Shown here piece by piece: positions 3,482 to 19,692 of a stretch of 64,000 nucleotides of DNA. Positions within the stretch are counted from its first letter, which is position 1. Each line of letters starts with the position of its first letter. A model generated the notes under the pieces. It worked only from the letters and a program-made list of their open reading frames with translations, was not told the origin of the DNA and ran no database searches. Made by a program: the position numbers and the translations under genes. This DNA is from a virus. The stretch lies in the IMG/VR virus record IMGVR_UViG_3300031991_000033. One strand, written 5' to 3'.

Positions 3482-4708
3482 ATGGCAAACTTCAAAGTAA
3501 CTTTGGAACGCAAAACTGCAAAACGCCTCAACTCTGACACGCTGGAAGAGCATCTTGAATACCTTGTGAGCCGTGCGACTGCCGGTGATCGCAAGGCTTG
3601 GACGAACACCAAATACAACGTGAGTGGACCCAAGCGTGAGTCTGGTGGACACGCTTATGCCATCACACTCACGTTTGAACGTAGCCGCCTTGGTAAGGAA
3701 CCATCTGGCGAACAACTCACCAATGAGTTGAAGTCAATCATGGAATACCTCACCAAGGCGGCTACGTCAACCAAATTCAAGCCTGCATGGTCAGTTGGTG
3801 ACCCTCAGCCAAGTTGGAGTACAAGTGTTGTAATGGGAGCGGAGTCTGACGGCTGCGATATTCTACCGTTTGAACGTGCTCTGACCTTCGAAGAACTGGT
3901 GATCCCCGAAGTGCTGGTGAGCGGTACGGATGAAGAAATTGAGCAGCATCCAGCGTTCCAAGGCATCTATGCACGTGCGGCACATATCCGCATCATTGGC
4001 TCTTCTTTGAAGCGAATGGTGGTCACCAAGGGTGCCAAACGAAACCATGTATTGCTTCACGGACTGCCCGGTTGTGCAAAGTCCCATATTCTTATGGGAT
4101 GGATGAACGTTCTCGGACCCGGTGCTTACTTCACCATCAACGCCAATAGTGCAACTCGTGCAGGCATTGAGAAGTTGTTCCTCGACAGATTCCGGCAAAC
4201 TGGTGTTCCGCCAGTTTGTTTTGTTGAAGAAATCGAGAAAACTCAAGAAGCGATTCTCACAGTCTGGCTTTCCATCTTAGACGAACGTGCGGAAGTTCGT
4301 AAAATCAATTACCGTGAGCAAGCTCGAATTGAAGCTAAGGTCTTGTCAATTGCGACGGCAAATGATAAAGTCCTGTTCGACCGCTTGCATGGCGGACGAC
4401 CGAGCCATCCCGGTGCTTTGTCGAGTCGTTTCACTAAGAAACTCTATGTGCCTCGACCTGACAAAGATGTGATGGAGAGGATTCTGCTTCGTGACATCAA
4501 TATGTACGGCGGCAAGAAAGCATGGGTGAAACCGTGTCTGGAAATCGCCGAACAGATCGGAACGAACGATCCTCGAATTGTGATGTCTCTGTTGGACGGT
4601 CAAGACCGTCTGCTTGACAACGGTTACCGTGAAGACATGCTCTCGATCTACAAGATGGAAGACAACGACCATTGGCAAGAAGATCGAGACGAAATCGAAG
4701 AAGACTAA
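3482..4708 (+). CDS. AAA+ ATPase
   Basis: Walker A HGLPGCAKS, Walker B CFVEEIEK, sensor-1 ATAND and Arg-finger ALSSRF; GGAGG RBS before ATG 3482. Confidence 0.85.
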   Translation: MANFKVTLERKTAKRLNSDTLEEHLEYLVSRATAGDRKAWTNTKYNVSGPKRESGGHAYAITLTFERSRLGKEPSGEQLTNELKSIMEYLTKAATSTKFKPAWSVGDPQPSWSTSVVMGAESDGCDILPFERALTFEELVIPEVLVSGTDEEIEQHPAFQGIYARAAHIRIIGSSLKRMVVTKGAKRNHVLLHGLPGCAKSHILMGWMNVLGPGAYFTINANSATRAGIEKLFLDRFRQTGVPPVCFVEEIEKTQEAILTVWLSILDERAEVRKINYREQARIEAKVLSIATANDKVLFDRLHGGRPSHPGALSSRFTKKLYVPRPDKDVMERILLRDINMYGGKKAWVKPCLEIAEQIGTNDPRIVMSLLDGQDRLLDNGYREDMLSIYKMEDNDHWQEDRDEIEED

Positions 4709-4718
4709 GGAGAAACCG

Positions 4719-5186
4719 ATGGCTGATTTTGTGTCCTATTGGGCTGTTTTCGCCTCTGGCAATGTTGCCGCACTCTGCCCTCAACGTGAAGACGCATTGG
4801 AATACATGCGTTTGAACGGCGGCGAGGGTATGGAGCAAGTGCGTTCCTTGGAACAGTTGTTCCAAACTTTGCAGCGTCACCGTGCTGCATATCAACAACA
4901 AGTTGCCGAAGACATCCTGCGTGTTCTCGCCGTTGAAGAAGAGATGGGCGAATGCTTTGAAGAAGCATACGACAATCTCATGAACAAACTTGGTGAGCTT
5001 GGACTCACTCGTGAGAATGCTCAGAAGGTTCTCGAAGACCTTCGCAAAGGAACCAGTGACTTCACTAGCGTTCTTGGTGGCTATGGCTGTCAAGCAGTGA
5101 ATGCGGCTGGTGGTTTGCTTGGTCGATTTGCCGCCAAACTACAATCCTTCGGCGTCAATGTCGAGGGGGAAAACGAAGACGAATAA
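4719..5186 (+). CDS. Hypothetical protein
   Basis: AAGGAG RBS; ATG 4719; phage-like codon usage. Confidence 0.7.
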   Translation: MADFVSYWAVFASGNVAALCPQREDALEYMRLNGGEGMEQVRSLEQLFQTLQRHRAAYQQQVAEDILRVLAVEEEMGECFEEAYDNLMNKLGELGLTRENAQKVLEDLRKGTSDFTSVLGGYGCQAVNAAGGLLGRFAAKLQSFGVNVEGENEDE

Positions 5187-5197
5187 GGAGCCTGTGA

Positions 5198-6271
5198 ATG
5201 GCTAGTACGTTGATTGCTGAAGTTTGTAAGATCGCTGAGATCGAGCCGCATCCCGACGCTGATCGTCTTGAATTGGCACGCATCAAAAACTGGTGGTGCA
5301 TTGTCAAGAAAGACGCATTCATCGTTGGCGAAAAGGTTGTATACATCCCACCGGAAACTGTTGTTCCAACAGCGGTTGCCGAGAAATGGGGCGTGTTCAA
5401 CTATTGTTCTCGTCTGCCAAAGTTGGGTGATGGCACTCAACCCGATGGTGTACGAGTCAAAGCGGCTCGGATTCGAGGCGTTGCCAGCCAAGGTTTGATT
5501 CTACCTCCCGAAGACAAAAATTGGGAATTGGGTCATTCGGTGGTTGAACACTTCGGTTTGAGCAAGTACGAGCCACCGCCGCCCGTGAACGCAGGTGAGG
5601 CAATTCCAGAACCGGAGATGTTCCACAGATTCACCGACATCGAAAACATCGGCAACTTTCCTGATGTATTTGTTGATGGCGAGGAAGTTGTTGTCGATGA
5701 AAAGATTCATGGCACCAACGGTCGTGCAGCTATCATCAACATTGACGGCGAAATGAAACTGTTCTGTGGTGGTCACAAACAGTGTCTCAAAGAAGTAAGC
5801 GATGATGGAAAACGATGTGTTTACTGGACTGCTATGGATGACAAGATGCAAGCATTGCTTGCCAAAGTGTCAGAAGGCGGTCGAAACGTTGTCGTGTTCG
5901 TGGAAGTCTTTGGTAGAAAGATTCAAGACATGGAATACGGCATGAACCAAATTGGTTATCGTGCCTACGACATGTCTGTGGATGGTCGTTACTTGGACTA
6001 CGAAGACAAAGTGGCTCTTTTCGCCGAGTTTGGCGTTGAGATGGCACCACTTTTGTATCGTGGACCATTCAGCATGGCGAAGATGCAAGAGTTGGTAGAC
6101 GGTCCTACAACCATGTGCGATCCAGACAAAGCTGGTCGCTTCAGTGGTCGTGAAGGAATCGTCATCCGTCCTGTTAAGGAAGTGCGTCATCCTCATGTTG
6201 GACGGAAAATCCTCAAGATGATTTCGGTTGATTACCACGAACGCAAAGGTAACAAAACCGAATTTCACTAA
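5198..6271 (+). CDS. RNA ligase, DRB0094-type (N-terminal OB/tRNA-binding-like domain plus Rnl2-like nucleotidyltransferase)
   Basis: N-terminal IEPHPDADRLELA...RIRGVASQGL; motif I EKIHGTN; VEVFG; AYDM; REGIVIRP; ILKMISVDY. Confidence 0.9.
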   Translation: MASTLIAEVCKIAEIEPHPDADRLELARIKNWWCIVKKDAFIVGEKVVYIPPETVVPTAVAEKWGVFNYCSRLPKLGDGTQPDGVRVKAARIRGVASQGLILPPEDKNWELGHSVVEHFGLSKYEPPPPVNAGEAIPEPEMFHRFTDIENIGNFPDVFVDGEEVVVDEKIHGTNGRAAIINIDGEMKLFCGGHKQCLKEVSDDGKRCVYWTAMDDKMQALLAKVSEGGRNVVVFVEVFGRKIQDMEYGMNQIGYRAYDMSVDGRYLDYEDKVALFAEFGVEMAPLLYRGPFSMAKMQELVDGPTTMCDPDKAGRFSGREGIVIRPVKEVRHPHVGRKILKMISVDYHERKGNKTEFH

Positions 6272-6280
6272 GAGGTCTCC

Positions 6281-6571
6281 ATGTTCAAGAAAAAAGACTC
6301 ACTGACCGGCATAGGGCTGATTCTGTTCTGTATTGCCTTGGCTGTCGTTATCATCATCGACAGCCAAGGCAAAGAACGGAGAATCCATGCTTGGGCAGAG
6401 CAACAGGGCTACGAGATTGTAGCCATTGAAGAACAACAATTCACAACCGGTCCTTTCCAAAACAAAGACGATACACAGAAGATTTATCGTGCTAGAGTGA
6501 AAGGGAAAGACAACCAAGATAAGTGGATTTGGTTCCGCATTGGTTGGTGGCTCGATGCCAAGGAAGAATGA
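6281..6571 (+). CDS. Small membrane-anchored protein
   Basis: N-terminal hydrophobic helix GIGLILFCIALAVVIII; GAGG RBS. Confidence 0.7.
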   Translation: MFKKKDSLTGIGLILFCIALAVVIIIDSQGKERRIHAWAEQQGYEIVAIEEQQFTTGPFQNKDDTQKIYRARVKGKDNQDKWIWFRIGWWLDAKEE

Positions 6572-7064
6572 GCATGAAAGTTTTGTACTCTAACGAGCCA
6601 GCTATCGGTGATGATTCGCATTCGATCTTTCTTGCTGGACCTACGCCTAGAAGCAGGGATGTTGATTCATGGCGTCCTGAAGCATTGGAATTCCTCGAAG
6701 TTATAGGTTGGAATGGGTTGGTCATGGTGCCTGAACACCGAGACTGGTCTGCCCTTGCAAGTTATGACGGACAGGTTGAGTGGGAGCAGGTTTGCCTCCA
6801 CGGTTGTGGTAAGGTTGTTTTTGGGTTCCTCGTGATCTCAAAACCATGCCAGCCTTCACTACAAATGTTGAATTCGGGTATTGGATCGCACGTGATCCCG
6901 TAAAGGTCATGTATGGGCGACCGGACAACTCGCCCAAGAACCGATATCTGGATTGGATGTATCAGACGCACACTCAACGAGAGCCTGTGTCTGATTTAAG
7001 GACTTTACTTACACAGACTGTTGGGACTTTTAACCATGAATCTGGGACGAGAACATTGGCGTAA
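6568..7064 (+). CDS. Nucleoside 2-deoxyribosyltransferase-like protein, split by a -1 frameshift at a T5 run (6818-6822)
   Basis: IFLAGPTPRS...W in one frame; VVFWVPRDLKTMPAFTTNVEFG...YGRP...RYLDW continues in the -1 frame. One extra T restores the family motif. Confidence 0.75.
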
Positions 7065-7677
7065 ACGTTGGATTACAGCGGATTGGCATTTGGGAGAAGA
7101 TCGCATGGGAATCATGATGCGACCTTTTTCCAATCAACAAGAACACATTAACAACATTGTCATGAGACACAACTTTGCCGTAGCACCTGATGATCTAATC
7201 ATCGTTGTCGGCGATGCTGTGAACCAAAATAAACCTGAGTGTGTCGAGATTCTTGAAAGACTCAACGGACGGAAGGTTTTGATTCGTGGGAATCATGACC
7301 GACCATATTCGGATGAAGAACTCGGAAAATACTTCGAACTCATCATCCCCGAAGGTGAAGGCGTCGAACTTGAAGTGATGTGTGATGGAAGTTTATTGCA
7401 TTGTTGGGCAACACATTATCCAACTCAAGCTCGTGAAGATCGATTCAACTTAGTTGGTCACATCCATTCCGCATGGAAGTTCCAACTGAACAGCGTCAAT
7501 GTTGGTGTGGATTGTAACCATTTCTGTCCACACGATCTTGATGTATTTGTTCCGTTTGCATACACCGCCATCAGTAAGTTCTATGATGACGATGTGTGGG
7601 CGGCTTACCACGAAGCAAATTGCTCCTTCCACGGCAAGCGTGGCAAGGAAGGGGTATATTTCAAAAAGGAAGACTGA
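7036..7677 (+). CDS. Calcineurin-like metallophosphoesterase
   Basis: Motifs ADWHLG, VGD, RGNHD, HYP and GHIH. Confidence 0.9.
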   Translation: MNLGREHWRKRWITADWHLGEDRMGIMMRPFSNQQEHINNIVMRHNFAVAPDDLIIVVGDAVNQNKPECVEILERLNGRKVLIRGNHDRPYSDEELGKYFELIIPEGEGVELEVMCDGSLLHCWATHYPTQAREDRFNLVGHIHSAWKFQLNSVNVGVDCNHFCPHDLDVFVPFAYTAISKFYDDDVWAAYHEANCSFHGKRGKEGVYFKKED

Positions 7678-7678
7678 G

Positions 7679-8512
7679 ATGAGTGATGCACTTGGGGATA
7701 GAATGAAGGCATACGAAGGACAATACGCCGTTCAGGTATTGATGCCTCGTATCCCGGTTGTTGCTCGTATTGACGGTCGAGCGTTCCACAGCTTTTGTCG
7801 TGGACTCAAGCGTCCTTATGATCAACGTCTGTCTGAACTGATGGTTCGCACCACCGAGTATCTCGTTGAAGAGACCGGTGCCAACTGTGGTTATACACAG
7901 AGCGACGAAATCAGTTTAGTGTGGTACAGAGAAGAATACAACTCGGAAATCTTCTTCAAGGGTCGCCTTTTGAAGATGACTTCGATTCTCGCCTCGATGA
8001 CCACCGCATTCTTCAACAAGTACATTCCTGACTACATGCCAGAGAAGGAGGATATTTTCGCCTTCTTTGACTCTCGTGTCTTCAACGTACCCCTCGAACA
8101 GGAAGCAGCAAACTACTTCGTGTGGAGAGAGATGGATGCAACACGCAATAGTGTGAGTATGGCAGCACAGGCTTACTTCTCACACAATTCGTTGCAGGGG
8201 CAGGGTAGTTCGGAAATGCAAGAAAGACTCTTCCAAGAGAAGGGAATTAACTGGAACGACTACCCCGCCTTTTTCAAACGTGGTACTTACGTTCAAAAGC
8301 GTAAGATCAACATCCCATTCACTGCTGCCGAGATTGACAGACTTCCTGAAAAGCACGCTGCAAGAACAAATCCAAATCTTGTAATTGAACGCCAGAAGGT
8401 GTTCAGAATCGACATGCCGCCGATTCTTAGGGTTACAAACAGAGTGGATGTAATTCTGCGTGGTGATGATCCTCAAACCGAAAGCGAAAGCGATGGTCAA
8501 AGTAACGAGTGA
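7679..8512 (+). CDS. tRNA(His) guanylyltransferase Thg1 / Thg1-like 3'-5' polymerase
   Basis: LGDRMKAYE, ARIDGRAFH, YTQSDEISL, FDSRVF, YFVWREMDATRNS, GINWNDYP and FKRG. Confidence 0.92.
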   Translation: MSDALGDRMKAYEGQYAVQVLMPRIPVVARIDGRAFHSFCRGLKRPYDQRLSELMVRTTEYLVEETGANCGYTQSDEISLVWYREEYNSEIFFKGRLLKMTSILASMTTAFFNKYIPDYMPEKEDIFAFFDSRVFNVPLEQEAANYFVWREMDATRNSVSMAAQAYFSHNSLQGQGSSEMQERLFQEKGINWNDYPAFFKRGTYVQKRKINIPFTAAEIDRLPEKHAARTNPNLVIERQKVFRIDMPPILRVTNRVDVILRGDDPQTESESDGQSNE

Positions 8513-8933
8513 AAAATCTGATCCCTTCGAGATTTTTACAACCTCGAAGCTCGAACGCATTATGAATGGTGCGTTGAAGGAGACTATCCGGGCACACGGA
8601 CCTGTAGATGTCAACGGCATCTCTTCTGTGTCAAAACGTGCCTGTATACAACTCCGAGCCTATCTGCGACAGTTCACTTCACAACAATTGTTGGAAGAGT
8701 CAACTAAGCAGATTGTCGAAGCTGCTGAACAATCCAATGTTGATCTACGAGAACACAATCGTAGATTGACAAAACAGGTTGCGTTTCTCGGCGAAGAGTT
8801 ACGCAAGATTCGTGATGGTGAATCCGAGAATCCGTCTGAGACGGCAAAGGAAGCCATCGTTCAAGCAAGGTCGATTCGCAAGGAAGAGAAATGCCAACAG
8901 ATTTCTGGATCGGAATTGTCTTCGGAACTTTAA
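8493..8933 (+). CDS. Hypothetical coiled-coil protein
   Basis: Open frame filling the gap after Thg1; start uncertain. Confidence 0.5.
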   Translation: MVKVTSEKSDPFEIFTTSKLERIMNGALKETIRAHGPVDVNGISSVSKRACIQLRAYLRQFTSQQLLEESTKQIVEAAEQSNVDLREHNRRLTKQVAFLGEELRKIRDGESENPSETAKEAIVQARSIRKEEKCQQISGSELSSEL

Positions 8934-9124
8934 TTGGTATGTTGATCCACATGCTGTGGCTCCGCTCAACGGCAACTGCTGTTGTGGAGAAAATCAATGA
9001 ATGCCAAAATCGTGATGACGAATGGTGGAAGCGTGGCGAACGCCCCCTTGGGAGCGTGAGGACTACGAGCATGATGGGTAATCTTTTGGAAAAATTTGTC
9101 CGACCTTGTTTTACAAAAAACTGA
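8891..9124 (+). CDS. Small membrane protein
   Basis: GGAG RBS; N-terminal TM helix FWIGIVFGTLIGMLIHMLWL. Confidence 0.6.
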   Translation: MPTDFWIGIVFGTLIGMLIHMLWLRSTATAVVEKINECQNRDDEWWKRGERPLGSVRTTSMMGNLLEKFVRPCFTKN

Positions 9125-9137
9125 AACTCCGTAAAAT
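9110..9137 (+). promoter_or_regulatory. Sigma70-like promoter for pncA-vWA
   Basis: TTTACA-N16(ending CCG)-TAAAAT, 52 nt upstream of ATG 9190. Confidence 0.7.
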
Positions 9138-9189
9138 GGTTGCAGTGAGTTAAACTCAGTTTCAAATCCCCGAAGTAGGAGAACTTGTC

Positions 9190-10014
9190 ATGGCGAAGAA
9201 CACCCAACTGATCGTTATCGATCCGCAGAATGATTTCTGCGATCCAAACAAAGGAGCACTTTATGTGAAAGGTGCTCATGATGACATGAACCGGCTCGCC
9301 GGTATGGTCACCCGTCTCGGTTCCAAGATTGACGACATCCACGTCACTTTGGACTCCCACCACAAAATCCACGTTGCTCATCCCATCTACTGGAAGGACA
9401 CGTCGGGCAATCACCCGAACCCCTTCACCATCATCACCGCCCAAGAAGTTCGTGACGGCGTGTGGACGCCTACTCGCCCGGCTTGGTTGCGTCACACTCG
9501 CAAGAGCTTTGGTGCTCTCGATTACGTGGAAGCTCTGGAAGCCAATGGCAAGTACCCGTTGTGTATTTGGCCACCGCACTGCTTGATTGGACATTGGGGT
9601 CACGGTGTCTTCCCGGTTCTGCTCGACGCTCTGGATAAGTGGGAAGAAGACGAATTCGCAGCGGTCAACTTTGTGACCAAGGGTTCGAACTACCACACTG
9701 AACACTACTCCGCTATCTGTGCGGACGTGCCAGACCCGACCGACCACACCACCGACATGAACAAGGGCTTCCTGCAAACCGTGATCGAAGCCGACGAGAT
9801 TCTTCTCGCTGGTGAAGCTGGTTCGCACTGCCTCGCATCGACCGGTCGTGACGCCGACGCCTTCTTCAGCGACGACTCCTTCGTCAAGAAGCTGGTTCTG
9901 CTGACCGACGCCACCAGCCCTGTCCCCGGATTTGAGGGTCTTCAGGACGCCTTTATCCGTGACATGACGGCGAAGGGTATGCGTGTCACCACAACCGTCG
10001 ATTACCTCGCCTAA
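9190..10014 (+). CDS. pncA: Nicotinamidase / isochorismatase-family cysteine hydrolase
   Basis: Catalytic Asp in VIDPQNDFC; metal ligands TLDSH and WPPHC; Lys in TKGS; nucleophile Cys in AGEAGSHCL; adjacent to NAD genes. Confidence 0.85.
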   Translation: MAKNTQLIVIDPQNDFCDPNKGALYVKGAHDDMNRLAGMVTRLGSKIDDIHVTLDSHHKIHVAHPIYWKDTSGNHPNPFTIITAQEVRDGVWTPTRPAWLRHTRKSFGALDYVEALEANGKYPLCIWPPHCLIGHWGHGVFPVLLDALDKWEEDEFAAVNFVTKGSNYHTEHYSAICADVPDPTDHTTDMNKGFLQTVIEADEILLAGEAGSHCLASTGRDADAFFSDDSFVKKLVLLTDATSPVPGFEGLQDAFIRDMTAKGMRVTTTVDYLA

Positions 10015-10073
10015 ACCGTAGTGGTGCAATTTTTGCACCCTGTTCCAACAACCACACCTTTGGGAGAAAAATC

Positions 10074-10829
10074 ATGCCCAAGTTCAATGATGATAATCTT
10101 GAACAGCACAATAACGCTGGAACCGGACACTACGGTTTCTCGGCTGTCAAGATTGAAGACCTCGAAGCCAGTGAATATACACTGGTGACAATCGTGCTCG
10201 ACGAATCCGGTTCCACGTTCGGTTTCAAAAACGAAATGGAAGCTTGCATCAAGGAGATCGTCAAGGCTTGCCGTCAGTCGGCACGTGCCGACTTCCTTCT
10301 GCTCCGTGTTGTGGCATTCGGCACTCGCATGTCGGAAATCCACGGCTTCCTACCGCTGGAACAATGCAATCCCGACAACTACAACGGTTGTTACGGAACC
10401 AACGGCAACGGTGCCAGCACCGCACTTTACGACTCGGCTGAAAACGCCATCAAGTCTTCGACCGTATACGCTGAACAGCTATCCGATCAAGACTTCGACG
10501 TGAACGGTATCGTCTTCATCCTGACGGATGGTGATGACAACGAATCTACGTCGGGCGAAAACGAAGTTCGTGAAGCACTGCAAGCGTGTATCACCAGTGA
10601 GAAGATGGAGTCGCTCGTCTCCGTGCTTGTCGGCGTCAACGTTCAGTCGCCGCATCTCGCTCAGTACCTCGACAACTTCTATCGCAACGCTGGTTTCAGC
10701 CAGTACGTGAAACTGGAAGATGCCGACGCCAACACGCTGGCGAAACTTGCGGACTTCGTGAGCCGAAGCATTTCCAGCCAGAGCCAAGCTCTGGGAACTG
10801 GCGGTCCTTCGCAGTCGCTCACCTTCTAA
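10074..10829 (+). CDS. von Willebrand factor A domain protein (TerY-like)
   Basis: MIDAS elements LDESGS, STALYD and ILTDGDDNES. Confidence 0.9.
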   Translation: MPKFNDDNLEQHNNAGTGHYGFSAVKIEDLEASEYTLVTIVLDESGSTFGFKNEMEACIKEIVKACRQSARADFLLLRVVAFGTRMSEIHGFLPLEQCNPDNYNGCYGTNGNGASTALYDSAENAIKSSTVYAEQLSDQDFDVNGIVFILTDGDDNESTSGENEVREALQACITSEKMESLVSVLVGVNVQSPHLAQYLDNFYRNAGFSQYVKLEDADANTLAKLADFVSRSISSQSQALGTGGPSQSLTF

Positions 10830-10852
10830 TCGGCACCTGTTCTCCTGCCGGG

Positions 10853-10890
10853 AAAGCTGGGTGGAATTTATTCCACCCAGCTTTTTTCTT
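10853..10890 (+). terminator. Intrinsic terminator closing the pncA-vWA unit
   Basis: AAAGCTGGGTGGAA-TTTA-TTCCACCCAGCTTT followed by a T-tract. Confidence 0.9.
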
Positions 10891-10924
10891 ATCACACTCT
10901 CTTATTGCAACAGGAGGACCAATT

Positions 10925-11146
10925 ATGGCTACCAGCTTTAGAAGTAATGGAGTGACTTTCATCTCCAACGAAGACCTTACAGGGGACGTGATGATTCGTC
11001 TGGGAACACCGGACAGCGAGAAACATGACATTCTTCGTGTACCAGCAGAGGCTATTATTGCCTTCGCAGCCGATGTGGTACGCAAGCGAAAAATGAAGAG
11101 GCTAGAGAATATGCCGCCTCTTCAAGTCTTGACCGAATCAGTTTGA
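10925..11146 (+). CDS. Small hypothetical protein
   Basis: AGGAGG RBS; 73 aa. Confidence 0.75.
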   Translation: MATSFRSNGVTFISNEDLTGDVMIRLGTPDSEKHDILRVPAEAIIAFAADVVRKRKMKRLENMPPLQVLTESV

Positions 11147-11167
11147 TTACCAAACTTGTAAAAATGG

Positions 11168-11224
11168 AAAGCCGGGAAATATCCCAGCTTTCTTCTTTGA
11201 CAGATCAATTTTTCTTCGTAAAAT
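11168..11224 (+). promoter_or_regulatory. Hairpin plus sigma70-like promoter cassette driving the pncB-nadE-PP2C-nadD-kinase run
   Basis: AAAGCCGGG..CCCAGCTTT hairpin, then TTGACA(11197)-N16-TAAAAT(11219); a near copy lies at 44280-44335. Confidence 0.75.
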
Positions 11225-11263
11225 CCCATCAGATCGAAGCTTTCTGTATCTTGGAGAACTGTC

Positions 11264-11613
11264 ATGGAACTCACGCCTGCTGAAAAAAAAAGTTGATCGC
11301 CGAACGCCGACAACAAGCTCAAGAAAAGGTGGACAAAGCTCTTGAAAAGGCAAACGAGTTGGAACAATGTTTGTCTTTTCAAGTTCGACAACTTTCCGAA
11401 TACACTGACGCCGAGAAGATTGCGGCTTTTGATAAGCTGTACAAGTTTGCTTCAGGTGTCTATCAAGCACGCCGAAACGAAGAACGGACCAAAGATTCTA
11501 ACCACTACGCTTACGAAGCGGTCATGGAGCTTCTAACGCCCAAAGGCGAAAGAAATCGTGTCTTTTGGGACCATTGGAATGAACTAGGAAACTTACTTCA
11601 GTGCTGGGAATAG
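11264..11613 (+). CDS. Hypothetical protein with a -1 frameshift in an A9 run (11283-11291)
   Basis: GGAG RBS and ATG 11264 give MELTPAEKK; the body LIAERRQQAQEKVD... is in the -1 frame. Confidence 0.65.
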
Positions 11614-11624
11614 AGGAGAACACA

Positions 11625-12800
11625 ATGCCCATTCAATCTGCCTTAGATAACGACCTATACAAGTTCACGATGCAGAACGCTGTACTCAAAAACTTCGCTG
11701 GCGAAGATGTCGAGTACAGGTTCAAAGATCGTCGTCCTTCGGGTCTCTACAACGAAGCATTCCTTGCAGGGTTCAACCAAGAGTTGGATCGAATGTCCAA
11801 GATGCGGTTCAGCAACGAAGAACTCGCTTATGTCCAAAGCGATCTGCCCTTCCTCAACCGACCCGACTACATTGCCTATCTGCATGACTTTCGATTTGAT
11901 CCCAATCAAGTCAAGGCGTCGATTGATGCTGATGGCAACCTTGATATGGGCATCAAAGGCACGTGGGATTCCACGATCCTCTGGGAAGTTCCTCTGCTTG
12001 CAATCGTGAGCGAACAATACTTTTTGCATTGTGACAAGCATTGGACGATGGACGGGCAGTATGAACTTGCTGCCCAGAAGTCTGATCGTCTCACCGCTGC
12101 CGGATGTACTTACGCCGACTTTGCCACACGTCGCCGCCGTAACAGTGCTACGCAGGAGATTTTCATCAAACAAGCGAAGGGCAAAGCCGGGTTCGTCGGA
12201 ACCTCGAATGTTCACTTTGCTCGCCTGTTCAAACTCAAAGCCATTGGAACGATGGCTCATGAATGGATCATGGGTGTCAGCGGCAAAGATGGTTTGCGTC
12301 GTGCAAATCGTGACGCACTCTGGCGTTGGGCAAACACTTACGATGGCAATCTGGGTATTGCTCTCACCGACACCTATGGAACCGCCGCCTTCTTCGAAGA
12401 TTTCGACGGTAAGTTGGCTCGTCTGTACGACGGTGTTCGTCATGACAGTGGAAATCCGTATGATTTCGGTGACAAAGTGATCGAGCATTACAAGAAGCTC
12501 GGAATCAAACCGAACACTCGGACCATTGTTTTCAGCGACGGGTTGGATGTTGACACAGCGATCAAAATCAAGAACTACTTCGCTGGTCGCATCAATGTCA
12601 GCTTTGGTATCGGAACGCACTTCTCGAATGACTTTCCGGCGTGTAAGGGCAGCAAAGCCCTAAGCATTGTCATCAAGTTGTGGAGCATTGCTGGCATTCC
12701 CGTTGTCAAGATCAGTGATGAACCAGCAAAAATTCAAGGCGATGCCGACGCATGTCGGGTAGCCAAGTGGACCTTCTTTGGAACTCCACTAGACGCCTAA
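11625..12800 (+). CDS. pncB: Nicotinate phosphoribosyltransferase
   Basis: DNDLYKFTM, DFATRRR, GTSNV, TMAHEW (phospho-His), LTDTYG, RHDSGNP, VFSDGL, FGIGT, IVIKL and KISDEPAK match the E. coli-type PncB pattern; GAGGAG RBS. Confidence 0.93.
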   Translation: MPIQSALDNDLYKFTMQNAVLKNFAGEDVEYRFKDRRPSGLYNEAFLAGFNQELDRMSKMRFSNEELAYVQSDLPFLNRPDYIAYLHDFRFDPNQVKASIDADGNLDMGIKGTWDSTILWEVPLLAIVSEQYFLHCDKHWTMDGQYELAAQKSDRLTAAGCTYADFATRRRRNSATQEIFIKQAKGKAGFVGTSNVHFARLFKLKAIGTMAHEWIMGVSGKDGLRRANRDALWRWANTYDGNLGIALTDTYGTAAFFEDFDGKLARLYDGVRHDSGNPYDFGDKVIEHYKKLGIKPNTRTIVFSDGLDVDTAIKIKNYFAGRINVSFGIGTHFSNDFPACKGSKALSIVIKLWSIAGIPVVKISDEPAKIQGDADACRVAKWTFFGTPLDA

Positions 12801-12812
12801 CAGGAGAATACC

Positions 12813-14993
12813 ATGAAAGAATACGGTTACTGCCGAGTGACAGCCGTCACTCCAAAAGTTGCAATCGGCAATGTTTCAGCGAATCTCGAAGAACACATTC
12901 GTGCCATCAACGAAGATAACTTCGGACTTACTGACGACGTTGAAGACTATGGTGTAGAAAGCGATGTTATCGTTTTCCCTGAACTCAGTCTTACCGGCTA
13001 TACTTGTGAAGATTTGTTCTTCCAGCGGTCTTTACAAGAACAAGCGTTGGATGCTTTGCGGCGTCTTGCAACTTTGAGTGAAAACTGGCGTTCGACTGTT
13101 ATCGTCGGACTTCCTGTCTTCATGCAAGAAGATGCCACGCTTCGTAACTGTGCGGCTGTGATCGGTAGTGGTCGTGTTCTTGGTATCGTCCCCAAAACGT
13201 TTCTGCCGAACTACCGTGAGTTCTACGAAGCACGTTGGTTCGCCCCAGCAAAGCCAACCGATCCACAGATGGTCAACATTGGCATTCCTGAACGAGTTCC
13301 GTTTGGTGCCGACTTGTTGTTTTCGCCCAAACGCTACGGTAACACAGCATGGACGTTTGGTGTTGAAATCTGCGAAGATGTTTGGTCACCGATTCCACCA
13401 AGCTCTTTTCAAGCACTTGCTGGTGCAACAGTGTTGTTCAATCTTTCGGCGAGCAACGAAACGATTGGCAAATCTGAATACCGTCGCAATTTTGTCAAAG
13501 GTCAAAGCGGTAAGCTGGTATCTGCATACATCTATTGCAGTGCGGGACCAACCGAATCGACCAAAGACCTTGTGTTTGGTGGGCACAACATTATCGGCGA
13601 AGGTGGCAGCATCGTTGCCGAAAGTGAAAAATTCGTGCGGCACACCCACACTTTGACTGCCGACATTGATGTTGACCGCCTATTGAGCGAACGTGCTTCG
13701 ATGCCGGGAACTTTTGCCGAATGTGCTACAAGAAACATGAAGCCGTTTCGGTTTGTTGAGTATCAGACCAATCCGTTGGTCGAGAAAAACCAAGAGTTGT
13801 ATCGACATGTTGAGGCTCACCCCTTTGTGCCAAAGAACCACACCGAATTGAAGGCTCGTTGTGCTGAAATCTTTGGCATCCAGACTGCCGGGCTTGCTAA
13901 ACGATTGGAGCGTGTATCGAAAGACACATACATTGGTGTGTCGGGCGGTCTTGATTCGACTTTAGCTTTGCTTGTCGCCTGTAAGACCTACGATATGCTC
14001 GGTATCGACCGCAAGCATTTGCACGGTATTACGATGCCCGGATTTGGTACGACCAACCGCACCAAGACCAACGCACGGATGTTGATGGATAATCTGGAAA
14101 TTAGCCAGAAGACCATCGACATTCGTGAGATGTGCATCCAAACTTGGCGTGATATGAAACACATTCCGTTCGGCGATGCGGAATGCGTTGTTGGTGGTAG
14201 AACAATGTTGTTTTCGGAGTGTCTACATCAACACACAGTTGTTGAAGGCTACGAAGAACGAAGAAGCATCCTTCCAGAAGAGTTGACTGTCAAACTCTTG
14301 GAAGAGTGTTTGAAATTCTTGCCGGATGGTGCTCAGGATTTGATCTTTGAGAACGTGCAAGCACGTGTACGCACTTTGATTCTCATGAGCCACGGTTTCG
14401 TGTTGGGAACCGGTGATTTGAGCGAGTTGGCTTTAGGTTGGTGTACGTACAACGGCGACCACATGTCGATGTACAACGTCAATTGCAGCATCCCAAAAAC
14501 GCTGGTCAAGTTCTTGGTTGAATACATTGCAGAACACGAAGTCGATAAGACTTGGGTGAACCGCAATGAAACATACCATTGTTTACTTGACATCGTGAAG
14601 ACTCCAATCTCGCCTGAGTTATTGCCAACCAAAGAAGGTGCAATTGCACAGGTCACCGAAGATAATGTGGGACCATACGAGTTGGTTGACTTCTTCTTGT
14701 ACAACTTTATGCGGTGTGGATTTGCACCGGGTAAGATCATGTTCTTGTCGCAGTTCGCAAACTTTGACAAGGACTACGAGTTGAACGAGATCGGCAAGTG
14801 GTTGAAGTTGTTCTACACAAGGTTCTTCACACAGCAGTTCAAACGAGACTGTGTGCCAGACGGACCAAAAGTTGGATCGGTAAGCCTCTCGCCTCGTGGA
14901 GATTGGCGTATGCCACCAGACGCCGACCGTGACGCTTGGTTGCATGAAGTTGATACATGGCTTGAAATTTACGGAGAATTGGAAGATGATTAA
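12813..14993 (+). CDS. nadE: Glutamine-dependent NAD+ synthetase (nitrilase-like glutaminase domain plus synthetase domain)
   Basis: VFPELSLTGY, PKTFLPNYREFYEARWF and EICEDVW (E-K-C triad); GVSGGLDSTLAL; ENVQAR; GTGDLSELALGWCTYNGDH; PKTL; PISPEL; KRDCVPDGPKVG...LSPRGDWRMP. Confidence 0.96.
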   Translation: MKEYGYCRVTAVTPKVAIGNVSANLEEHIRAINEDNFGLTDDVEDYGVESDVIVFPELSLTGYTCEDLFFQRSLQEQALDALRRLATLSENWRSTVIVGLPVFMQEDATLRNCAAVIGSGRVLGIVPKTFLPNYREFYEARWFAPAKPTDPQMVNIGIPERVPFGADLLFSPKRYGNTAWTFGVEICEDVWSPIPPSSFQALAGATVLFNLSASNETIGKSEYRRNFVKGQSGKLVSAYIYCSAGPTESTKDLVFGGHNIIGEGGSIVAESEKFVRHTHTLTADIDVDRLLSERASMPGTFAECATRNMKPFRFVEYQTNPLVEKNQELYRHVEAHPFVPKNHTELKARCAEIFGIQTAGLAKRLERVSKDTYIGVSGGLDSTLALLVACKTYDMLGIDRKHLHGITMPGFGTTNRTKTNARMLMDNLEISQKTIDIREMCIQTWRDMKHIPFGDAECVVGGRTMLFSECLHQHTVVEGYEERRSILPEELTVKLLEECLKFLPDGAQDLIFENVQARVRTLILMSHGFVLGTGDLSELALGWCTYNGDHMSMYNVNCSIPKTLVKFLVEYIAEHEVDKTWVNRNETYHCLLDIVKTPISPELLPTKEGAIAQVTEDNVGPYELVDFFLYNFMRCGFAPGKIMFLSQFANFDKDYELNEIGKWLKLFYTRFFTQQFKRDCVPDGPKVGSVSLSPRGDWRMPPDADRDAWLHEVDTWLEIYGELEDD

Positions 14994-15180
14994 CCTTCCA
15001 ACAACCGCTGACCTTGAGTGTGATGAATGCAACGAAATTATCGAAGTTGACCTCACACTCTTTGCTGGCGATCCAGAAACCGTTGGTTTTGACCATCACG
15101 AAATGCCGGAAGGTTGGGCATTTCGTGATGGCGAACACCTTTGCCCCAACTGCAATAAGGATGAAGACCATGAAGTTTAA
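14986..15180 (+). CDS. Small acidic Zn-ribbon protein
   Basis: CDEC...HLCPNC; overlaps the nadE stop and the PP2C start (translational coupling). Confidence 0.7.
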   Translation: MINLPTTADLECDECNEIIEVDLTLFAGDPETVGFDHHEMPEGWAFRDGEHLCPNCNKDEDHEV

Positions 15181-16006
15181 CGCCGATCATTTTTACTGCA
15201 TTGGGACATCGCATCACTTCTGCGAAGATTTCGCAAACTCTGCGGTTTCCGAACAACAGGATAAGGCGTACAGCATCGTGTCTGACGGATGCTCGTCTGC
15301 CAAAGAATCGAGCATTGGTGCAATGCTTCTGACGAAAAGTGCAGAACAACATTTGTATCCGGTTCGACCAAAAGATCGTGCAGACGAAATGGTAAACCTT
15401 GCTATGCAGGGTGCGAATGTTTTTCGTCGAACGCTCGGTATGAGCGTGGAAGCCTTGCGTGCCACGCTCCTAACTGTTTCCGTTGTCGATGGTGCTTTCC
15501 GAGTTACCACGAACGGCGACGGTGTTGTGGTGGCACGCCATCGCAAAAATGGATTGGAGTACATGGAACTTGAGTTCTCTTCTGGTGCTCCATTCTATCC
15601 GATTTACGATTTGACACACGCTGACCGGGAAAGGTATCTCTCAGAATTCCCCGGCAATTATACGATCCGCCTGCACAGCAATGGGAATGTCGAAGAGGTT
15701 GTTGTGCAGGTGGATCGAGCAAATGGAGCGATCACCTACGCCTACGATTATCCAATTGATCAATACGATCTGGTTGGCGTCATGTCTGATGGAGCACAGA
15801 CCTTTTACAAAGAGAACATGACAGGTACAACCAAAACACCTATCATGGTGCCGGTTGAAGAGGTTGTGAACGAGATGTTCTCGTTCAAAAATCTGCAACC
15901 TAACTTTGTAAAAAGGCGTACCCAGAAGGCGTTCAAAGCCTTTGAAAAATTGGGATACAAACACTTCGATGACTTTAGTATTGGAGTAGTGTGTAGCCAT
16001 GACTAA
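15170..16006 (+). CDS. PP2C-like protein phosphatase (TerY-P triad type)
   Basis: IGTSHHFCEDF, IVSDGCSS, NGDGVV, VMSDG and C-terminal FDDFSI give the PPM metal-binding Asp pattern. Confidence 0.85.
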   Translation: MKFNADHFYCIGTSHHFCEDFANSAVSEQQDKAYSIVSDGCSSAKESSIGAMLLTKSAEQHLYPVRPKDRADEMVNLAMQGANVFRRTLGMSVEALRATLLTVSVVDGAFRVTTNGDGVVVARHRKNGLEYMELEFSSGAPFYPIYDLTHADRERYLSEFPGNYTIRLHSNGNVEEVVVQVDRANGAITYAYDYPIDQYDLVGVMSDGAQTFYKENMTGTTKTPIMVPVEEVVNEMFSFKNLQPNFVKRRTQKAFKAFEKLGYKHFDDFSIGVVCSHD

Positions 16007-16592
16007 ACGACGAATCAACGTGTATGGCAGTGCGTGTAATCCAACACATAACGTGCATCAACTAATCTTGGAAGACCTGTGCCAGATTGGGTTTGATGAA
16101 GTTTGGTTCATGCCCTGTTCTGCCCACGTGTTCGGCAAAGATATGATCGCACCGATTCACCGTCTCAAGATGGCAGAGATTGCTGCCATTGCCGCTGGTG
16201 CTTATGTCTGTGACTACCAAATCAATCTAGGGCGTAAAATCCCCACTTGGGATACATTGCAAGCCTTCCATGCAAGCCAGCCAGATGTGGAGTTTTCTTT
16301 CACGATTGGCGGCGACAACTTAGCCGATTTTGATAAATGGCATCGTTGGGAAGAGCTTGCAGACAAGTATCACGTTGTTGCTTATCGCAGAAATGAAACA
16401 GTTTCAGATTCGATTCTGAGTCGCTTCCGTAATTTGACAATCCGTGAACTTGAACTCAACCCAATTTACGACGGTTTGTCGTCAACGAAAATTCGGGCAT
16501 TGTTGGCGAACAATGACCCCGAAGTGGACCAATACCTGCACCCAGCGGTCTCGCAGTACATTCGAGAGAACAGCCTGTATCGAGGAGAATAG
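15999..16592 (+). CDS. nadD: Nicotinate-nucleotide adenylyltransferase
   Basis: YGSACNPTHNVH (variant of GGSF(D/N)PxHxGH), VWFMP, HRLKM, TWDTL, IGGDNLADFDKWHRWEEL and LSSTKIR. Confidence 0.9.
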   Translation: MTKRRINVYGSACNPTHNVHQLILEDLCQIGFDEVWFMPCSAHVFGKDMIAPIHRLKMAEIAAIAAGAYVCDYQINLGRKIPTWDTLQAFHASQPDVEFSFTIGGDNLADFDKWHRWEELADKYHVVAYRRNETVSDSILSRFRNLTIRELELNPIYDGLSSTKIRALLANNDPEVDQYLHPAVSQYIRENSLYRGE

Positions 16593-16594
16593 TT

Positions 16595-18298
16595 ATGAAA
16601 TACAGCATTCGTGGCACCGGCAATGAAGTTACCCTCACGAATCAGCACTTTCTCGCCAAAGGCGGCGAGGGTTCGATTTTCGCCCGCCCACCGCTGGTTT
16701 ACAAAGTTTGTGAACCGGGCAAGATGATGCCGGATGGCAAAGTACAGGAGCTTGGCGTTCTCGATTCGCCTCGTGTCATTCGACCCAAAGATGTTCTCTT
16801 GGATTCCAAGAAGAAACCGGTTGGATACACGATGGACTATGTGGCAGACACCACCGTTCTCTGCCAACTATTCACCAAGGCGTTTCGTAAGCGAAACGGC
16901 ATCACGCACGATATGATTTGGGAACTTGTGCGTGATATGGAAAAAACAACTCGATTCATCCACAGCAAGGGCGTCTTGGTTGTGGATTACAATGAGTTGA
17001 ATTTTTTGGTGGACAAGAACTTCAAAGAAGTTTACTTCATTGACGTGAACAGCTATCAAACTCCGAGCTATCCCGCTACGGCGATCATGGAAAGCATTCG
17101 AGATCGCCACTGTGGAAATAAGTTCAGTGAACTTACGGATTGGTTCTCTTTTGGGATTGTTTCTTTCCAATTGATGATTGGAATTCACCCATTTAAGGGT
17201 AAGCACCCCAATTTCCTTGATCCGAAAACTTCGATGGATGAACGGATGAAGGCAAACATCTCTGTATTGAATCCTGCCGTGTCTTACCCACAAGGGGCAA
17301 CACAGCCCTTCAGCGTGATTCCTGATGCGTACATGCAGTGGTATAAAGCGATCTTTGATGGTGGCAAACGATTGCCTCCTCCGGGTGTTGGCAGCGGCGT
17401 TATCATCATTGCAACGCCGGTTGTTCAATCGGTGGGTGGTAGCAACTTGTTCACGGTCAACGAACTCTACAACTTTGGTGAAGAAATCATCAGCATCTTC
17501 ATGCATGTTGGGAAAGAGATCGTTGTTACCGACAAGTCTGTCTACGTGGACCGACACAAGATTCCTAACACAACGGCTGATCCAACGATGAAGATCGGAT
17601 TTACACCAACAACGTTGCAGCCAGTTGTGGCGTCAGCCGACATGCGTCAACTGAAGCTCAAGAATCTGACGACCGGTCAGGATTTGAAGTGTTCGTTGTA
17701 CGCTGACGACATCATGTCGCACGATGGTCGTTTGTACGTTCGCAATGGTTCACAAATTTTGGAAATCGAATTCACCGAGATCGGCAAGAATGTGCTCGTC
17801 TCTCCAAAGCATGTTGGCAACGTTTTGGAGCAAGCTGCCAAGGTGTATGATGGTGTGATCGTCGAGAACTTGTTTGATGCGATGTATTTCTCGATGTTCC
17901 CAGAGAGCGGAATCTGCCGTCAGATCGCCATCCGTGAATTGGATGGTTACAAGATCATCGACGCCAAGTATGAAGGCGGATTGTTGGTTGTGATCGGAGT
18001 CAACAACAAGACGGGTGAGTACGACCGATTTACTTTCTGGTTCGATAGCAAGTGGAAGTATCAATCGGTAGTCGTGAAAGACATCACGTACACCGGCTTG
18101 AACTTCACGGTGCTAGATAATGGCGTCGTCATCTTGATCAACGAAGAAGAAAAGGTGGAAATCTTCCGAGTCGCTGATCCAACCAAGAAAAAAGTTGTAG
18201 ACGACGACGCTATTGCGGCTGACATGAAGTTGACGAGTTCTGGTGCTAAAACTATGTTCACAAAAGGACAAAGTTTGTACAGCTTCAAGATGAACTAA
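16595..18298 (+). CDS. Ser/Thr protein kinase-like protein with a long C-terminal domain (TerY-P triad type)
   Basis: Gly loop LAKGGEGSIF, VYKV, catalytic loop HSKGVLVVDYNELNFLV, FIDVNS, TDWFSFGIV and GIHPFKG. Confidence 0.85.
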   Translation: MKYSIRGTGNEVTLTNQHFLAKGGEGSIFARPPLVYKVCEPGKMMPDGKVQELGVLDSPRVIRPKDVLLDSKKKPVGYTMDYVADTTVLCQLFTKAFRKRNGITHDMIWELVRDMEKTTRFIHSKGVLVVDYNELNFLVDKNFKEVYFIDVNSYQTPSYPATAIMESIRDRHCGNKFSELTDWFSFGIVSFQLMIGIHPFKGKHPNFLDPKTSMDERMKANISVLNPAVSYPQGATQPFSVIPDAYMQWYKAIFDGGKRLPPPGVGSGVIIIATPVVQSVGGSNLFTVNELYNFGEEIISIFMHVGKEIVVTDKSVYVDRHKIPNTTADPTMKIGFTPTTLQPVVASADMRQLKLKNLTTGQDLKCSLYADDIMSHDGRLYVRNGSQILEIEFTEIGKNVLVSPKHVGNVLEQAAKVYDGVIVENLFDAMYFSMFPESGICRQIAIRELDGYKIIDAKYEGGLLVVIGVNNKTGEYDRFTFWFDSKWKYQSVVVKDITYTGLNFTVLDNGVVILINEEEKVEIFRVADPTKKKVVDDDAIAADMKLTSSGAKTMFTKGQSLYSFKMN

Positions 18299-18532
18299 GC
18301 GGTGTTCTTGACACGCCGCTCTTGCATATTTTTCAGCAGTGACGAAGCCCTTGAAGGTATATCGAGGGCATTCGTCCATATTGCCTTCGCCTTCTAGCCT
18401 CAAAAGAGTGTCGGTATCACCGACATGCTGAACGAGCGATCCATGCTCTGAACGAAGTTCCCCACAGGTACACATCTCATCAACTACCCAATCTTGAAGG
18501 CGTTTTGAGTAGAAGGGTTGGATCGCAGTCAT
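18113..18532 (-). CDS. Hypothetical Cys/His-containing protein
   Basis: CTCG..SEHG motif. The 3' part overlaps the kinase gene antisense, so the extent is uncertain. Confidence 0.4.
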   Translation of the reverse strand: MTAIQPFYSKRLQDWVVDEMCTCGELRSEHGSLVQHVGDTDTLLRLEGEGNMDECPRYTFKGFVTAEKYARAACQEHRLVHLEAVQTLSFCEHSFSTRTRQLHVSRNSVVVYNFFLGWISDSEDFHLFFFVDQDDDAII

Positions 18533-18763: not shown

Positions 18764-19231
18764 TCATTCAACGATCAAGTTGGTTGCTGAGAGACCGATG
18801 TCAAGCCATTCCTTGAAGGATGGTTTGATTCTGCGACGTAAAGCACGCAGATATTTGGGCATATCTCTCTTGAGGGCAGGGTGAAGGGGAAACCTAGGGA
18901 GTTCCCCGATCTCAACCCACATCCATGCAGAGTGCTCTTTGGAGAGCTTACGCACCTTAAAATGCGTGTCCACCTTCCATAGTATGCAATGGAACTCGAA
19001 TTGTCCAGTCCTAGAAGTCAGTGTTTCAATTTTTGTGCCGGGCGGTCGATAGACTCCGGTTTCTTCTCGAAGCTCACGCCGAGCCGTCTCTTCTGGACGC
19101 TCACCTTCTTCGCTGTGACCACCGGGTAGACACCATGTTCTCGGATAGGTTTCGGTGTGGTTGCGTTTGAGCAAGAGGATTTTAGAGCCGTCCGAGAAGA
19201 GATAACCGGCTCCTTGTTTTCGCTTGCTCAT
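18764..19231 (-). CDS. Nudix hydrolase
   Basis: Nudix box GGHSEEGERPEETARRELREETG; ILLLKR; EHSAWMW. Confidence 0.93.
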   Translation of the reverse strand: MSKRKQGAGYLFSDGSKILLLKRNHTETYPRTWCLPGGHSEEGERPEETARRELREETGVYRPPGTKIETLTSRTGQFEFHCILWKVDTHFKVRKLSKEHSAWMWVEIGELPRFPLHPALKRDMPKYLRALRRRIKPSFKEWLDIGLSATNLIVE

Positions 19232-19692
19232 GCTTTAGGACCAGTCTTGAGTGGCACTCGCTTCAGTTTCGCCATGTGACGATCTGGCTTGTCCTTGAGA
19301 CCGTGCATCTCATTCTTCACTTCCTTCACGATGTCTGATGCATTTGTTGCATCAAGTTTCTTGGAATCACCTTGCTTGGTGATCGACTTCGTGTCTTTAC
19401 GGAAGAAACCTTTGGTCAAGAAGTAGCATTTGTGGTGCGTGTTCCATGAGACCACAACGGTCCATGTGCCATCGTCCCAATTGCGTTGAGACACCATGAT
19501 GCGTGGCAGGTTGTCATCAAACACCTGCTTCACATGGAAGTCCGCCTTCTTGAGACCAGCAGAGGTGTAGCCAAGAGAGATTTTGGCATAGTTCGTCAAT
19601 ACTTCATCGACGCCAGTGCGGAAGTTGACCTCCACACTGTATCGAGTGCTGTTGTTTGATTCATTGATGAGCCAGCCTACAAAGTCTTCCAT
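19228..19692 (-). CDS. Hypothetical protein
   Basis: 154 aa; AAGGTGG RBS; N-terminus MEDFVGWLINE. Confidence 0.75.
   Translation of the reverse strand: MEDFVGWLINESNNSTRYSVEVNFRTGVDEVLTNYAKISLGYTSAGLKKADFHVKQVFDDNLPRIMVSQRNWDDGTWTVVVSWNTHHKCYFLTKGFFRKDTKSITKQGDSKKLDATNASDIVKEVKNEMHGLKDKPDRHMAKLKRVPLKTGPKA

Follow-up and report, generated by a model that had tools for sequence, protein, structure and literature searches.

The 64,000-nucleotide stretch of viral DNA analysed here (hereafter the window; IMG/VR record IMGVR_UViG_3300031991_000033) contains a locus in which signalling genes and NAD biosynthesis genes are interleaved. The conserved unit of this locus is a cassette of four genes, which code for a PncA-type nicotinamidase, a YegL-like vWA protein, a PP2C phosphatase, and a YegI-like Ser/Thr kinase with a C-terminal beta-propeller. 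The cassette is ancient and mobile, and in the window it is pulled apart by pncB, nadE, and nadD. The genetic association is strong, and the recurrence of the cassette in more than 100 huge phages and bacterial chromosomes suggests that NAD+ recycling is controlled by protein phosphorylation in a way not yet described. With moderate confidence, we favour the explanation that the cassette acts as a phospho-switch for NAD+ salvage led by the nicotinamidase and that the phage would use it to rebuild NAD+.

The record from which the window was taken is a 157,792-bp virus, classed in IMG/VR as a provirus, with a CheckV completeness of 31%. It also encodes a tail sheath, a baseplate hub, ribonucleotide reductase, an SbcC-like nuclease, an RNA ligase, and a Thg1-like enzyme. 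Given this phage gene content and the fact that the closest homologues of the kinase lie on contigs of 200–650 kb, we conclude that the window is a piece of a huge phage. A megablast search with the 9.4-kb region gave no match among GenBank phages. When the collection of cultured and deposited phages was searched at the protein level, only unannotated metagenomic phage records were found; the full-length kinase is encoded by two of them, of 595 kb and 485 kb.

Conservation of the Four-Gene Cassette

A single-sequence pattern scan of viral contigs for the kinase returned nothing, and an alignment-based scan was required. It yielded 80 viral loci and 80 loci from metagenome-assembled genomes (MAGs) or genomes (hereafter the genome set), with 150 non-redundant kinase loci, which are numbered here with the prefix L. 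The cassette was counted in non-redundant loci with at least 4.5 kb of upstream sequence (73 viral and 47 from the genome set), and its presence was read by tblastn of the window proteins against the loci. All four genes (pncA, vWA, PP2C, and kinase) were present in 68 of the 73 viral loci and in 36 of the 47 loci of the genome set. They follow the order pncA-vWA-PP2C-kinase on one strand in 63 viral and 36 genome-set loci. Compact cassettes, in which the distance from the pncA start to the kinase start is at most 3.2 kb, were found in 20 viral and 33 genome-set loci; the median gaps between successive genes in the latter 33 copies are 41, 105, and 80 nucleotides (nt). PncA accompanies the kinase in about 90% of the viral loci.

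The open reading frames (ORFs) of 83 loci were then clustered all against all. The four cassette families were alone in exceeding 60 loci and were followed by pncB (21 loci), Nudix (20), and nadD (13). These counts indicate that the four genes stay together while their flanks turn over. Where the gene order has changed (L046, L071, and L083), pncA and vWA were relocated as a pair. The first-pass annotation of the window had described a triad of vWA, PP2C, and kinase interleaved with NAD enzymes; the linkage stands, and the real unit comprises four genes, PncA included.

The order pncB-nadE-PP2C-nadD-kinase is identical in the window and in L165, L002, L008, L015, L019, and L090, which fall into two neighbouring clades of the kinase tree. 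It looks like a single event that was subsequently inherited. The position of NadD between the phosphatase and the kinase had been read earlier as a sign of one integrated system. As a single arrangement inherited within one lineage, it says little by itself, and we rejected it as independent evidence of integration.

Properties of the Cassette Proteins

The PncA-like protein matched the N-terminus of the Isochorismatase family in Pfam with 19.9 bits (cut-off 27). Its best solved relative is the yeast nicotinamidase Pnc1, and the WPxHC motif, which reads LWPVHC in Pnc1, reads IWPPHC in the window protein. Among 116 orthologues, the catalytic residues D11, K164, and C214, which align with the motifs of Pnc1, are at least 95% conserved. 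The same holds for the metal-site residues D55, H57, and H130. In the alignment, the catalytic triad and D55, H57, W127, H130, and C131 are invariant.

The vWA protein of the window had no Pfam match of its own, and searches of solved structures with its sequence alone or its profile gave nothing useful. Its assignment follows from three observations taken together. The residues of the metal ion-dependent adhesion site (MIDAS; D43, S45, S47, T116, and D152) are kept, and four of them (D43, S47, T116, and D152) are invariant; the Pfam VWA family was matched by 14 of 28 orthologues; and the predicted model (pLDDT 90; predicted template modelling score 0.89) has a fold that matches only vWA and integrin I domains. 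The reviewed protein with the highest template modelling (TM) score against the model is E. coli YegL (TM 0.65/0.74, root-mean-square deviation 3.1 Å). A profile comparison with YegL by hhalign gave a probability of 73.5% and an E-value of 2.9e-5. At its C-terminal end, the protein has a helix and a tail that carry the motif FVSxSISSQSQALGTGGPSQ. The conservation of S230, S232, S237, and S246 is at least 95%, and the helix can be aligned with the C-terminus of YegL, which is likewise Ser-rich.

The kinase scored 27.5 bits against Pkinase, which is below the cut-off. A profile built from 24 homologues matched eukaryotic-type kinases in the PDB, and its hhalign comparison with E. coli YegI gave a probability of 97% and an E-value of 7e-11 over 297 columns, with common motifs. 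In the model (pLDDT 86), a disordered linker joins the kinase domain (residues 1–265) to an all-beta propeller (residues 286–567). The top solved matches of the C-terminal region are the kinase-WD40 part of LRRK2 and WD40 propellers. The G-loop, K37, D131, N136, and D150 are conserved. The family comprises 1,619 matches, nearly all of them full length at about 560–570 amino acids.

In the PP2C phosphatase, the metal-binding Asp motifs (D20, D39, D117, D207, and D267/268) are conserved among 119 orthologues. We do not claim orthology of this phosphatase to E. coli PphC, as the profile match between them is weak (23% probability). The catalytic or metal-binding residues of all three enzymes and the MIDAS of the vWA protein are thus kept in more than 115 orthologues each, and judged from these residues all parts of the cassette look active.

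Linkage to NAD and ADP-Ribose Genes

Among loci with full flanks, pncB was found within 10 kb of the cassette in 19 of 58 viral loci (33%) and in 8 of 24 loci of the genome set. The corresponding values for nadE and nadD in the viral loci are about 10% and 14%. The linkage between the triad and NAD genes, for which the first-pass annotation had suggested a neighbourhood analysis, proved recurrent rather than absent. At least five placements of pncB were observed: it lies between vWA and PP2C, follows PP2C, is located upstream of pncA, comes directly after the kinase, or is divergent upstream. The kinase tree shows 20 or more changes in its presence. In addition, a gene of the NAPRTase family lies within about 30 kb of the cassette in four of five near-complete phages of 420–620 kb that gave no nearby pncB by tblastn. 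We conclude that pncB, nadE, and nadD are facultative and that PncA is the constant partner. In the 618,736-bp phage of L072, which lacks a clear pncB, an ORF of 486 amino acids (contig 325685–326173) about 2 kb upstream of pncA showed a weak match to the NAPRTase family (25.5 bits); it may code for a divergent or Nampt-like phosphoribosyltransferase.

The bacterial copies have cellular neighbours. A chromosome-scale MAG of Capsulimonadaceae carries pncB directly after the kinase, with genes for BlaR1, an extracytoplasmic function (ECF) sigma factor, and a flavin reductase around it. In a chromosome-scale MAG of Chthonomonadaceae (L114), the cassette is located between pncB and a WGR-PARP_reg-PARP gene (11748–13019, minus strand), and the latter adjoins the kinase. 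On a 511-kb MAG contig of Acidobacteriota (L098), it follows genes for NrtR (Nudix + NrtR_WHD) and NADAR (4900–7261). Upstream of the cassette in the Capsulimonadaceae locus L096, there is a gene for a 1000-amino-acid protein with WGR and ATP-ligase domains (3657–6659, minus strand). As a test for prophages, a tail sheath gene was searched for near the cassette in five cassette-bearing bacterial genomes, and none was found. A gene of the Nudix family is located near the kinase in 20 of the 83 clustered loci, including the window. The PARP, NADAR/NrtR, and WGR-ligase neighbours of the bacterial copies jointly point to ADP-ribosylation biology.

Organization of the Locus in the Window

The features of the locus are listed in Table 1. 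All nine plus-strand genes, the four junctions, and the hairpin that had been annotated previously were confirmed. The pncA-vWA unit ends at a terminator that consists of a 17-bp hairpin and a U run, with a folding free energy of −25.9 kcal/mol (z −6.2); none of 200 shuffled sequences folded equally well. The second unit runs from the small ORF at 11293 through pncB, nadE, the zinc-ribbon gene, PP2C, and nadD to the kinase, and its genes overlap or abut from nadE on. The nadE stop codon (14991–14993) overlaps the start of the zinc-ribbon gene (ATG 14986), the zinc-ribbon stop codon (15178–15180) overlaps the start of PP2C (ATG 15170), and the PP2C stop codon (16004–16006) overlaps the start of nadD (ATG 15999); the nadD stop codon (16590–16592) is followed by 2 nt and the kinase start (ATG 16595). 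This layout is consistent with a nadE-to-kinase stretch that is partly coupled at the level of translation. In the case of pncB, the ATG at 11625, which lies behind GAGGAGA, is more likely the start than the GTG at 11601, where the ORF opens.

Table 1. Coordinates of the genes and signals at the locus, with the basis of each assignment.
Feature	Coordinates	Strand	Basis
Candidate sigma-70-like promoter, TTTACA-16-TAAAAT	9110..9137	+	Consensus match; upstream of pncA
PncA-type nicotinamidase, 274 aa (amino acids), interrupted by about 60 inserted residues; first cassette gene	9190..10014	+	Pfam, relation to Pnc1, conserved residues
YegL/TerY-like vWA protein, 251 aa, intact MIDAS, conserved Ser-rich C-terminal helix and tail	10074..10829	+	MIDAS, orthologues, model
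Intrinsic terminator ending the pncA-vWA unit	10850..10887	+	Hairpin followed by a U run
73-aa ORF, function unassigned, without family match	10925..11146	+	Position kept in the closest relatives (tblastn 45% identity in L002; 73-aa gene at the equivalent place in L165)
Candidate sigma-70-like promoter, TTGACA-16-TAAAAT, 11/12	11197..11224	+	Consensus match; before the second unit
106-aa ORF ending just 5′ of pncB	11293..11613	+	Weak Mu Gam-like match below cut-off
PncB, nicotinate phosphoribosyltransferase	11625..12800	+	436 bits (cut-off 379)
NadE, glutamine-dependent NAD+ synthetase, CN_hydrolase + NAD_synthase	12813..14993	+	795 bits (cut-off 473)
Zinc-ribbon protein (CxxC...CxxC), 64 aa, overlapping both neighbouring genes	14986..15180	+	Sequence motif
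PP2C-type Ser/Thr phosphatase, 278 aa	15170..16006	+	PF13672, 42.6 bits (cut-off 24)
NadD, nicotinate-mononucleotide adenylyltransferase	15999..16592	+	TIGR00482, 105.6 bits (cut-off 112); above the Pfam cytidylyltransferase cut-off
YegI-like Ser/Thr kinase (residues 1–265) fused to a WD40-like beta-propeller (286–567)	16595..18298	+	Profile, model
Nudix hydrolase, convergent with the kinase	18764..19231	-	Pfam PF00293, 71.8 bits

The Preiss-Handler set of the window (PncB, NadD, and NadE) is complete, and together with the first cassette gene it provides at this locus the full deamidating route from nicotinamide through nicotinate, nicotinate mononucleotide, and nicotinate adenine dinucleotide to NAD+. 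The Nudix hydrolase could belong to the NAD block as an ADP-ribose or NAD(H) pyrophosphatase. It is followed by a 154-amino-acid gene without assigned function (19228–19692), which travels with the Nudix gene in the clade of the window. The 64-amino-acid zinc-ribbon gene occurs in this phage only. L165 and L002, in which the kinase is 82% and 58% identical, respectively, lack it, and no homologue was detected by tblastn in any fetched locus.

Directly upstream of the locus lies an RNA-repair-like block (5198–8512, plus strand) with genes for an RNA ligase, a nucleoside deoxyribosyltransferase-like protein, a metallophosphoesterase, and a Thg1-like enzyme. The last three are found at the same position in the closest relative (L165:58-2445), where the fetched stretch stops before the site of the ligase. 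A 444-amino-acid ORF (8704–10038, minus strand) runs antisense across the entire pncA, and similar antisense ORFs were seen in 11 loci of the clustering; it most likely results from the codon composition of a conserved gene. A 139-amino-acid ORF without family match (18113–18532, minus strand) shares 186 nt with the conserved 3′ end of the kinase gene and is probably not a gene, or is shorter than listed.

Proposed Function and Alternative Explanations

According to the explanation that we favour, the kinase and PP2C would form a reversible phospho-switch, and the propeller would serve as a sensor or docking domain. The target of the switch would be the vWA adaptor and/or the nicotinamidase, and the Ser-rich C-terminal helix and tail of the vWA protein is the best candidate acceptor. 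In the simplest model, phosphorylation of this tail would be read out through the MIDAS and would affect the adjacent nicotinamidase. The switch could in this way set the timing with which nicotinamide from NAD+ cleavage is fed back into NAD+ synthesis. The phage would benefit by having NAD+ available during infection, for example, against NADase defences of the host or in the face of its own NAD+ consumers. The regulation of the nicotinamidase by the triad, the directions of phosphorylation, and the anti-defence role are all inferred. A more elaborate form of the model describes an NAD+ homeostasis device that bacteria and huge phages share. In this device, the propeller would sense a product of NAD+ cleavage or an ADP-ribosylated target, phosphorylation of the vWA tail would switch the nicotinamidase via the MIDAS, and phages would use it to time the rebuilding of NAD+ against NADase immunity. 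In this complete form, we regard the model as tentative and rather unlikely.

Several observations weigh against the phospho-switch on NAD+ salvage. The PncA-like protein scores below curated cut-offs (22.6 bits against the NCBIfam nicotinamidase model, vs 174), and an insertion of about 60 residues splits its domain. Because of these two features, nicotinamide can only be proposed as its substrate, from the sequence relationship described above. Contacts between a protein of the triad and PncA or any NAD enzyme are hypothetical; the prediction of a complex of PncA and vWA scored 0.00 in two runs, a result that is neutral as to binding. About two thirds of the cassettes have no pncB within 10 kb. 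One well-supported kinase clade (L132, L134, L135, L138, L144, L155, and L156; contigs labelled Thiotrichaceae or Gammaproteobacteria) has no PncA, vWA, or PP2C in the fetched flanks, so either its cassette is dispersed or its kinase acts alone. The conservation is partly shared descent, as many loci come from related huge phages, and most loci of the genome set are MAG contigs, possibly mis-binned phage. The genes flanking the cassette were checked by Pfam in three bacterial loci. The promoter candidates are consensus matches, and the frequency of such sites in the region is not above that in shuffled sequences.

The neighbours of the bacterial copies raise the alternative that the cassette mainly serves ADP-ribosylation signalling or turnover of a PARP-like, NADAR-reversible kind. 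The triad would then respond to or control ADP-ribosyl transfer, PncA would clear nicotinamide, a product that inhibits such transferases, and the NAD synthesis genes would be secondary. This would account for a PncA that is constant next to facultative pncB, nadE, and nadD, for the WGR-PARP gene by the kinase in L114, NADAR and NrtR in L098, and the WGR-ligase-like gene upstream in L096, and for the recurrent Nudix gene, which the window shares. However, its basis is three bacterial neighbourhoods, neither PARP nor NADAR was seen in the examined part of the window, and the full synthesis route around the cassette here fits the supply of NAD+ at least equally well. We consider this alternative improbable.

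The phage-encoded kinase could also be a host-takeover enzyme. The kinase of T7, gp0.7, phosphorylates host proteins, and beta-propellers often dock protein partners. The cassette kinase would phosphorylate host proteins in a similar manner, with PP2C and vWA as its controller and partner, and the NAD genes would be unrelated auxiliaries in a shared accessory region. Its occurrence at full length in huge phages, within a family of more than 1,600 matches, its intact catalytic residues, and a propeller of a common protein-docking fold agree with such a role. On the other hand, the same four genes are compact in bacterial chromosomes with cellular flanks, which argues for an endogenous target, and PncA stays with the kinase in about 90% of the viral loci while other genes turn over. 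A host-takeover role appears quite improbable to us.

The first-pass annotation had considered a captured defence module, that is, a triad of the TerY-P type that acts in anti-phage defence or superinfection exclusion independently of NAD metabolism. TerY-P has the same set of domains (vWA, PP2C, and Ser/Thr kinase), phage defence by TerY-P-like modules is known, and the kinase and vWA protein are homologous to E. coli YegI and YegL. PADLOC v2 contains TerY-P models. Nevertheless, neither the window proteins nor 28 vWA orthologues gave a TerY-P-type match with the PADLOC models; the vWA protein, PP2C, and these orthologues had no PADLOC match at all, and the kinase had only a weak match to Mad6, which belongs to another system. 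Moreover, a propeller takes the place of the zinc ribbon or OB fold, PncA is almost always present, and the bacterial copies lie by NrtR, pncB, and PARP genes and not in recognisable defence islands. The chance that the triad is such a defence module seems small. Finally, a lack of any functional coupling, with inherited synteny of one phage lineage and occasional block transfer to bacteria, would suit the relatedness of the viral loci (kinase identity 33–82%) and the apparent single origin of the interleaved order, but it is very improbable: conservation does not extend to the flanks, pncA and vWA stayed paired where genes moved, bacteria of at least two phyla have the cassette in a tighter form, and pncB re-associates in at least five placements.

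The phospho-switch on NAD+ salvage is of interest for several reasons. NAD+ depletion is a major anti-phage strategy of bacteria, and three phage pathways that rebuild NAD+ have been shown experimentally, none of which is deamidating or has a regulatory module. The locus described here links a defined enzyme and pathway to a switch of the YegL-PphC-YegI/TerY-P-like kind, for which no physiological target is known even in E. coli. It thereby provides a concrete substrate hypothesis for a widespread and unexplained class of bacterial Ser/Thr signalling modules and suggests that huge phages regulate, and not merely supplement, NAD+ metabolism. The NAD+ homeostasis device, if true, would be the first protein-phosphorylation control at the entry step of NAD+ salvage.

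Comparison with Known Systems

No published description of the cassette combination was found by text searches. One of the closest known arrangements is TerY-P, which according to the account in PMC11090510 (there after Anantharaman, Iyer and Aravind 2012) consists of vWA, PP2C, and a Ser/Thr kinase whose C-terminus is a zinc ribbon or, in the version that acts in defence, an OB fold; the same account gives TerY-P-like modules as anti-phage (Gao et al. 2020). The cassette has in common with it the vWA protein with a MIDAS, the phosphatase of the PP2C_2 type, and the atypical Hanks-type kinase. The predicted logic, a phosphorylation switch acting on the vWA protein, is also the same. The cassette differs in the propeller of its kinase, in the near-constant nicotinamidase, and in its neighbours, which belong to NAD salvage and ADP-ribose metabolism rather than to Ter, restriction, or CoCoNuT systems. 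The three genes of TerY-P are adjacent in one operon. Those of the cassette are contiguous and form one operon in most relatives; in the window, a terminator and 4.3 kb separate the vWA gene from PP2C, and NadD splits PP2C and the kinase. Thus, the likeness to TerY-P noted at first holds for the vWA protein with its MIDAS, PP2C, and the YegI-type kinase, and fails at the C-terminus of the kinase and in the PADLOC comparison.

The yegL-pphC-yegI genes of E. coli code for a vWA protein, a PP2C-like phosphatase, and a Ser/Thr kinase (bioRxiv 10.1101/819920 and 10.1101/303594), and YegI has been found experimentally to be an active kinase (10.1101/819920). The kinase and vWA protein are homologous to those of the cassette, and the phosphatase and kinase genes of E. 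coli overlap by ATGA in some strains (10.1101/819920). In contrast to the cassette, no nicotinamidase or NAD gene adjoins yegL-pphC-yegI in the 12-kb region of K-12. According to its authors, YegI resides in the inner membrane, and it is without a propeller, whereas the cassette kinase has one.

Clusters of pncB, nadD, and nadE have been described on the genome of a jumbo phage in work on 'NAD-jumbo phages', in which pncA is mentioned as phage-encoded (PMC11662467). That paper does not mention a kinase (0 occurrences) and does not describe the cassette. In the window, by contrast, a signalling cassette has apparently recruited the NAD genes, which are interleaved with it.

The rebuilding of NAD+ by phages is an established form of counter-defence, exemplified by NARP1 and NARP2 (bioRxiv 10.1101/2024.02.11.579819) and NARP3 (PMC13464706). 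None of the NARP pairs (Adps + Namat, Nampt + Nmnat, and PnuC + NadR) was seen among the annotated genes at 9–19 kb of the window; the rest of the record was not searched for them. The purpose is likely common to these pathways and to the locus described here, namely, the rebuilding of NAD+ from breakdown products or precursors to survive depletion. The chemistry is different: NARP1–3 employ Adps/Namat, Nampt/Nmnat, and PnuC/NadR, whereas the window encodes a four-step deamidating route via nicotinate. Furthermore, NARP1–3 have no kinase-phosphatase module, whereas the locus in the window possesses one.

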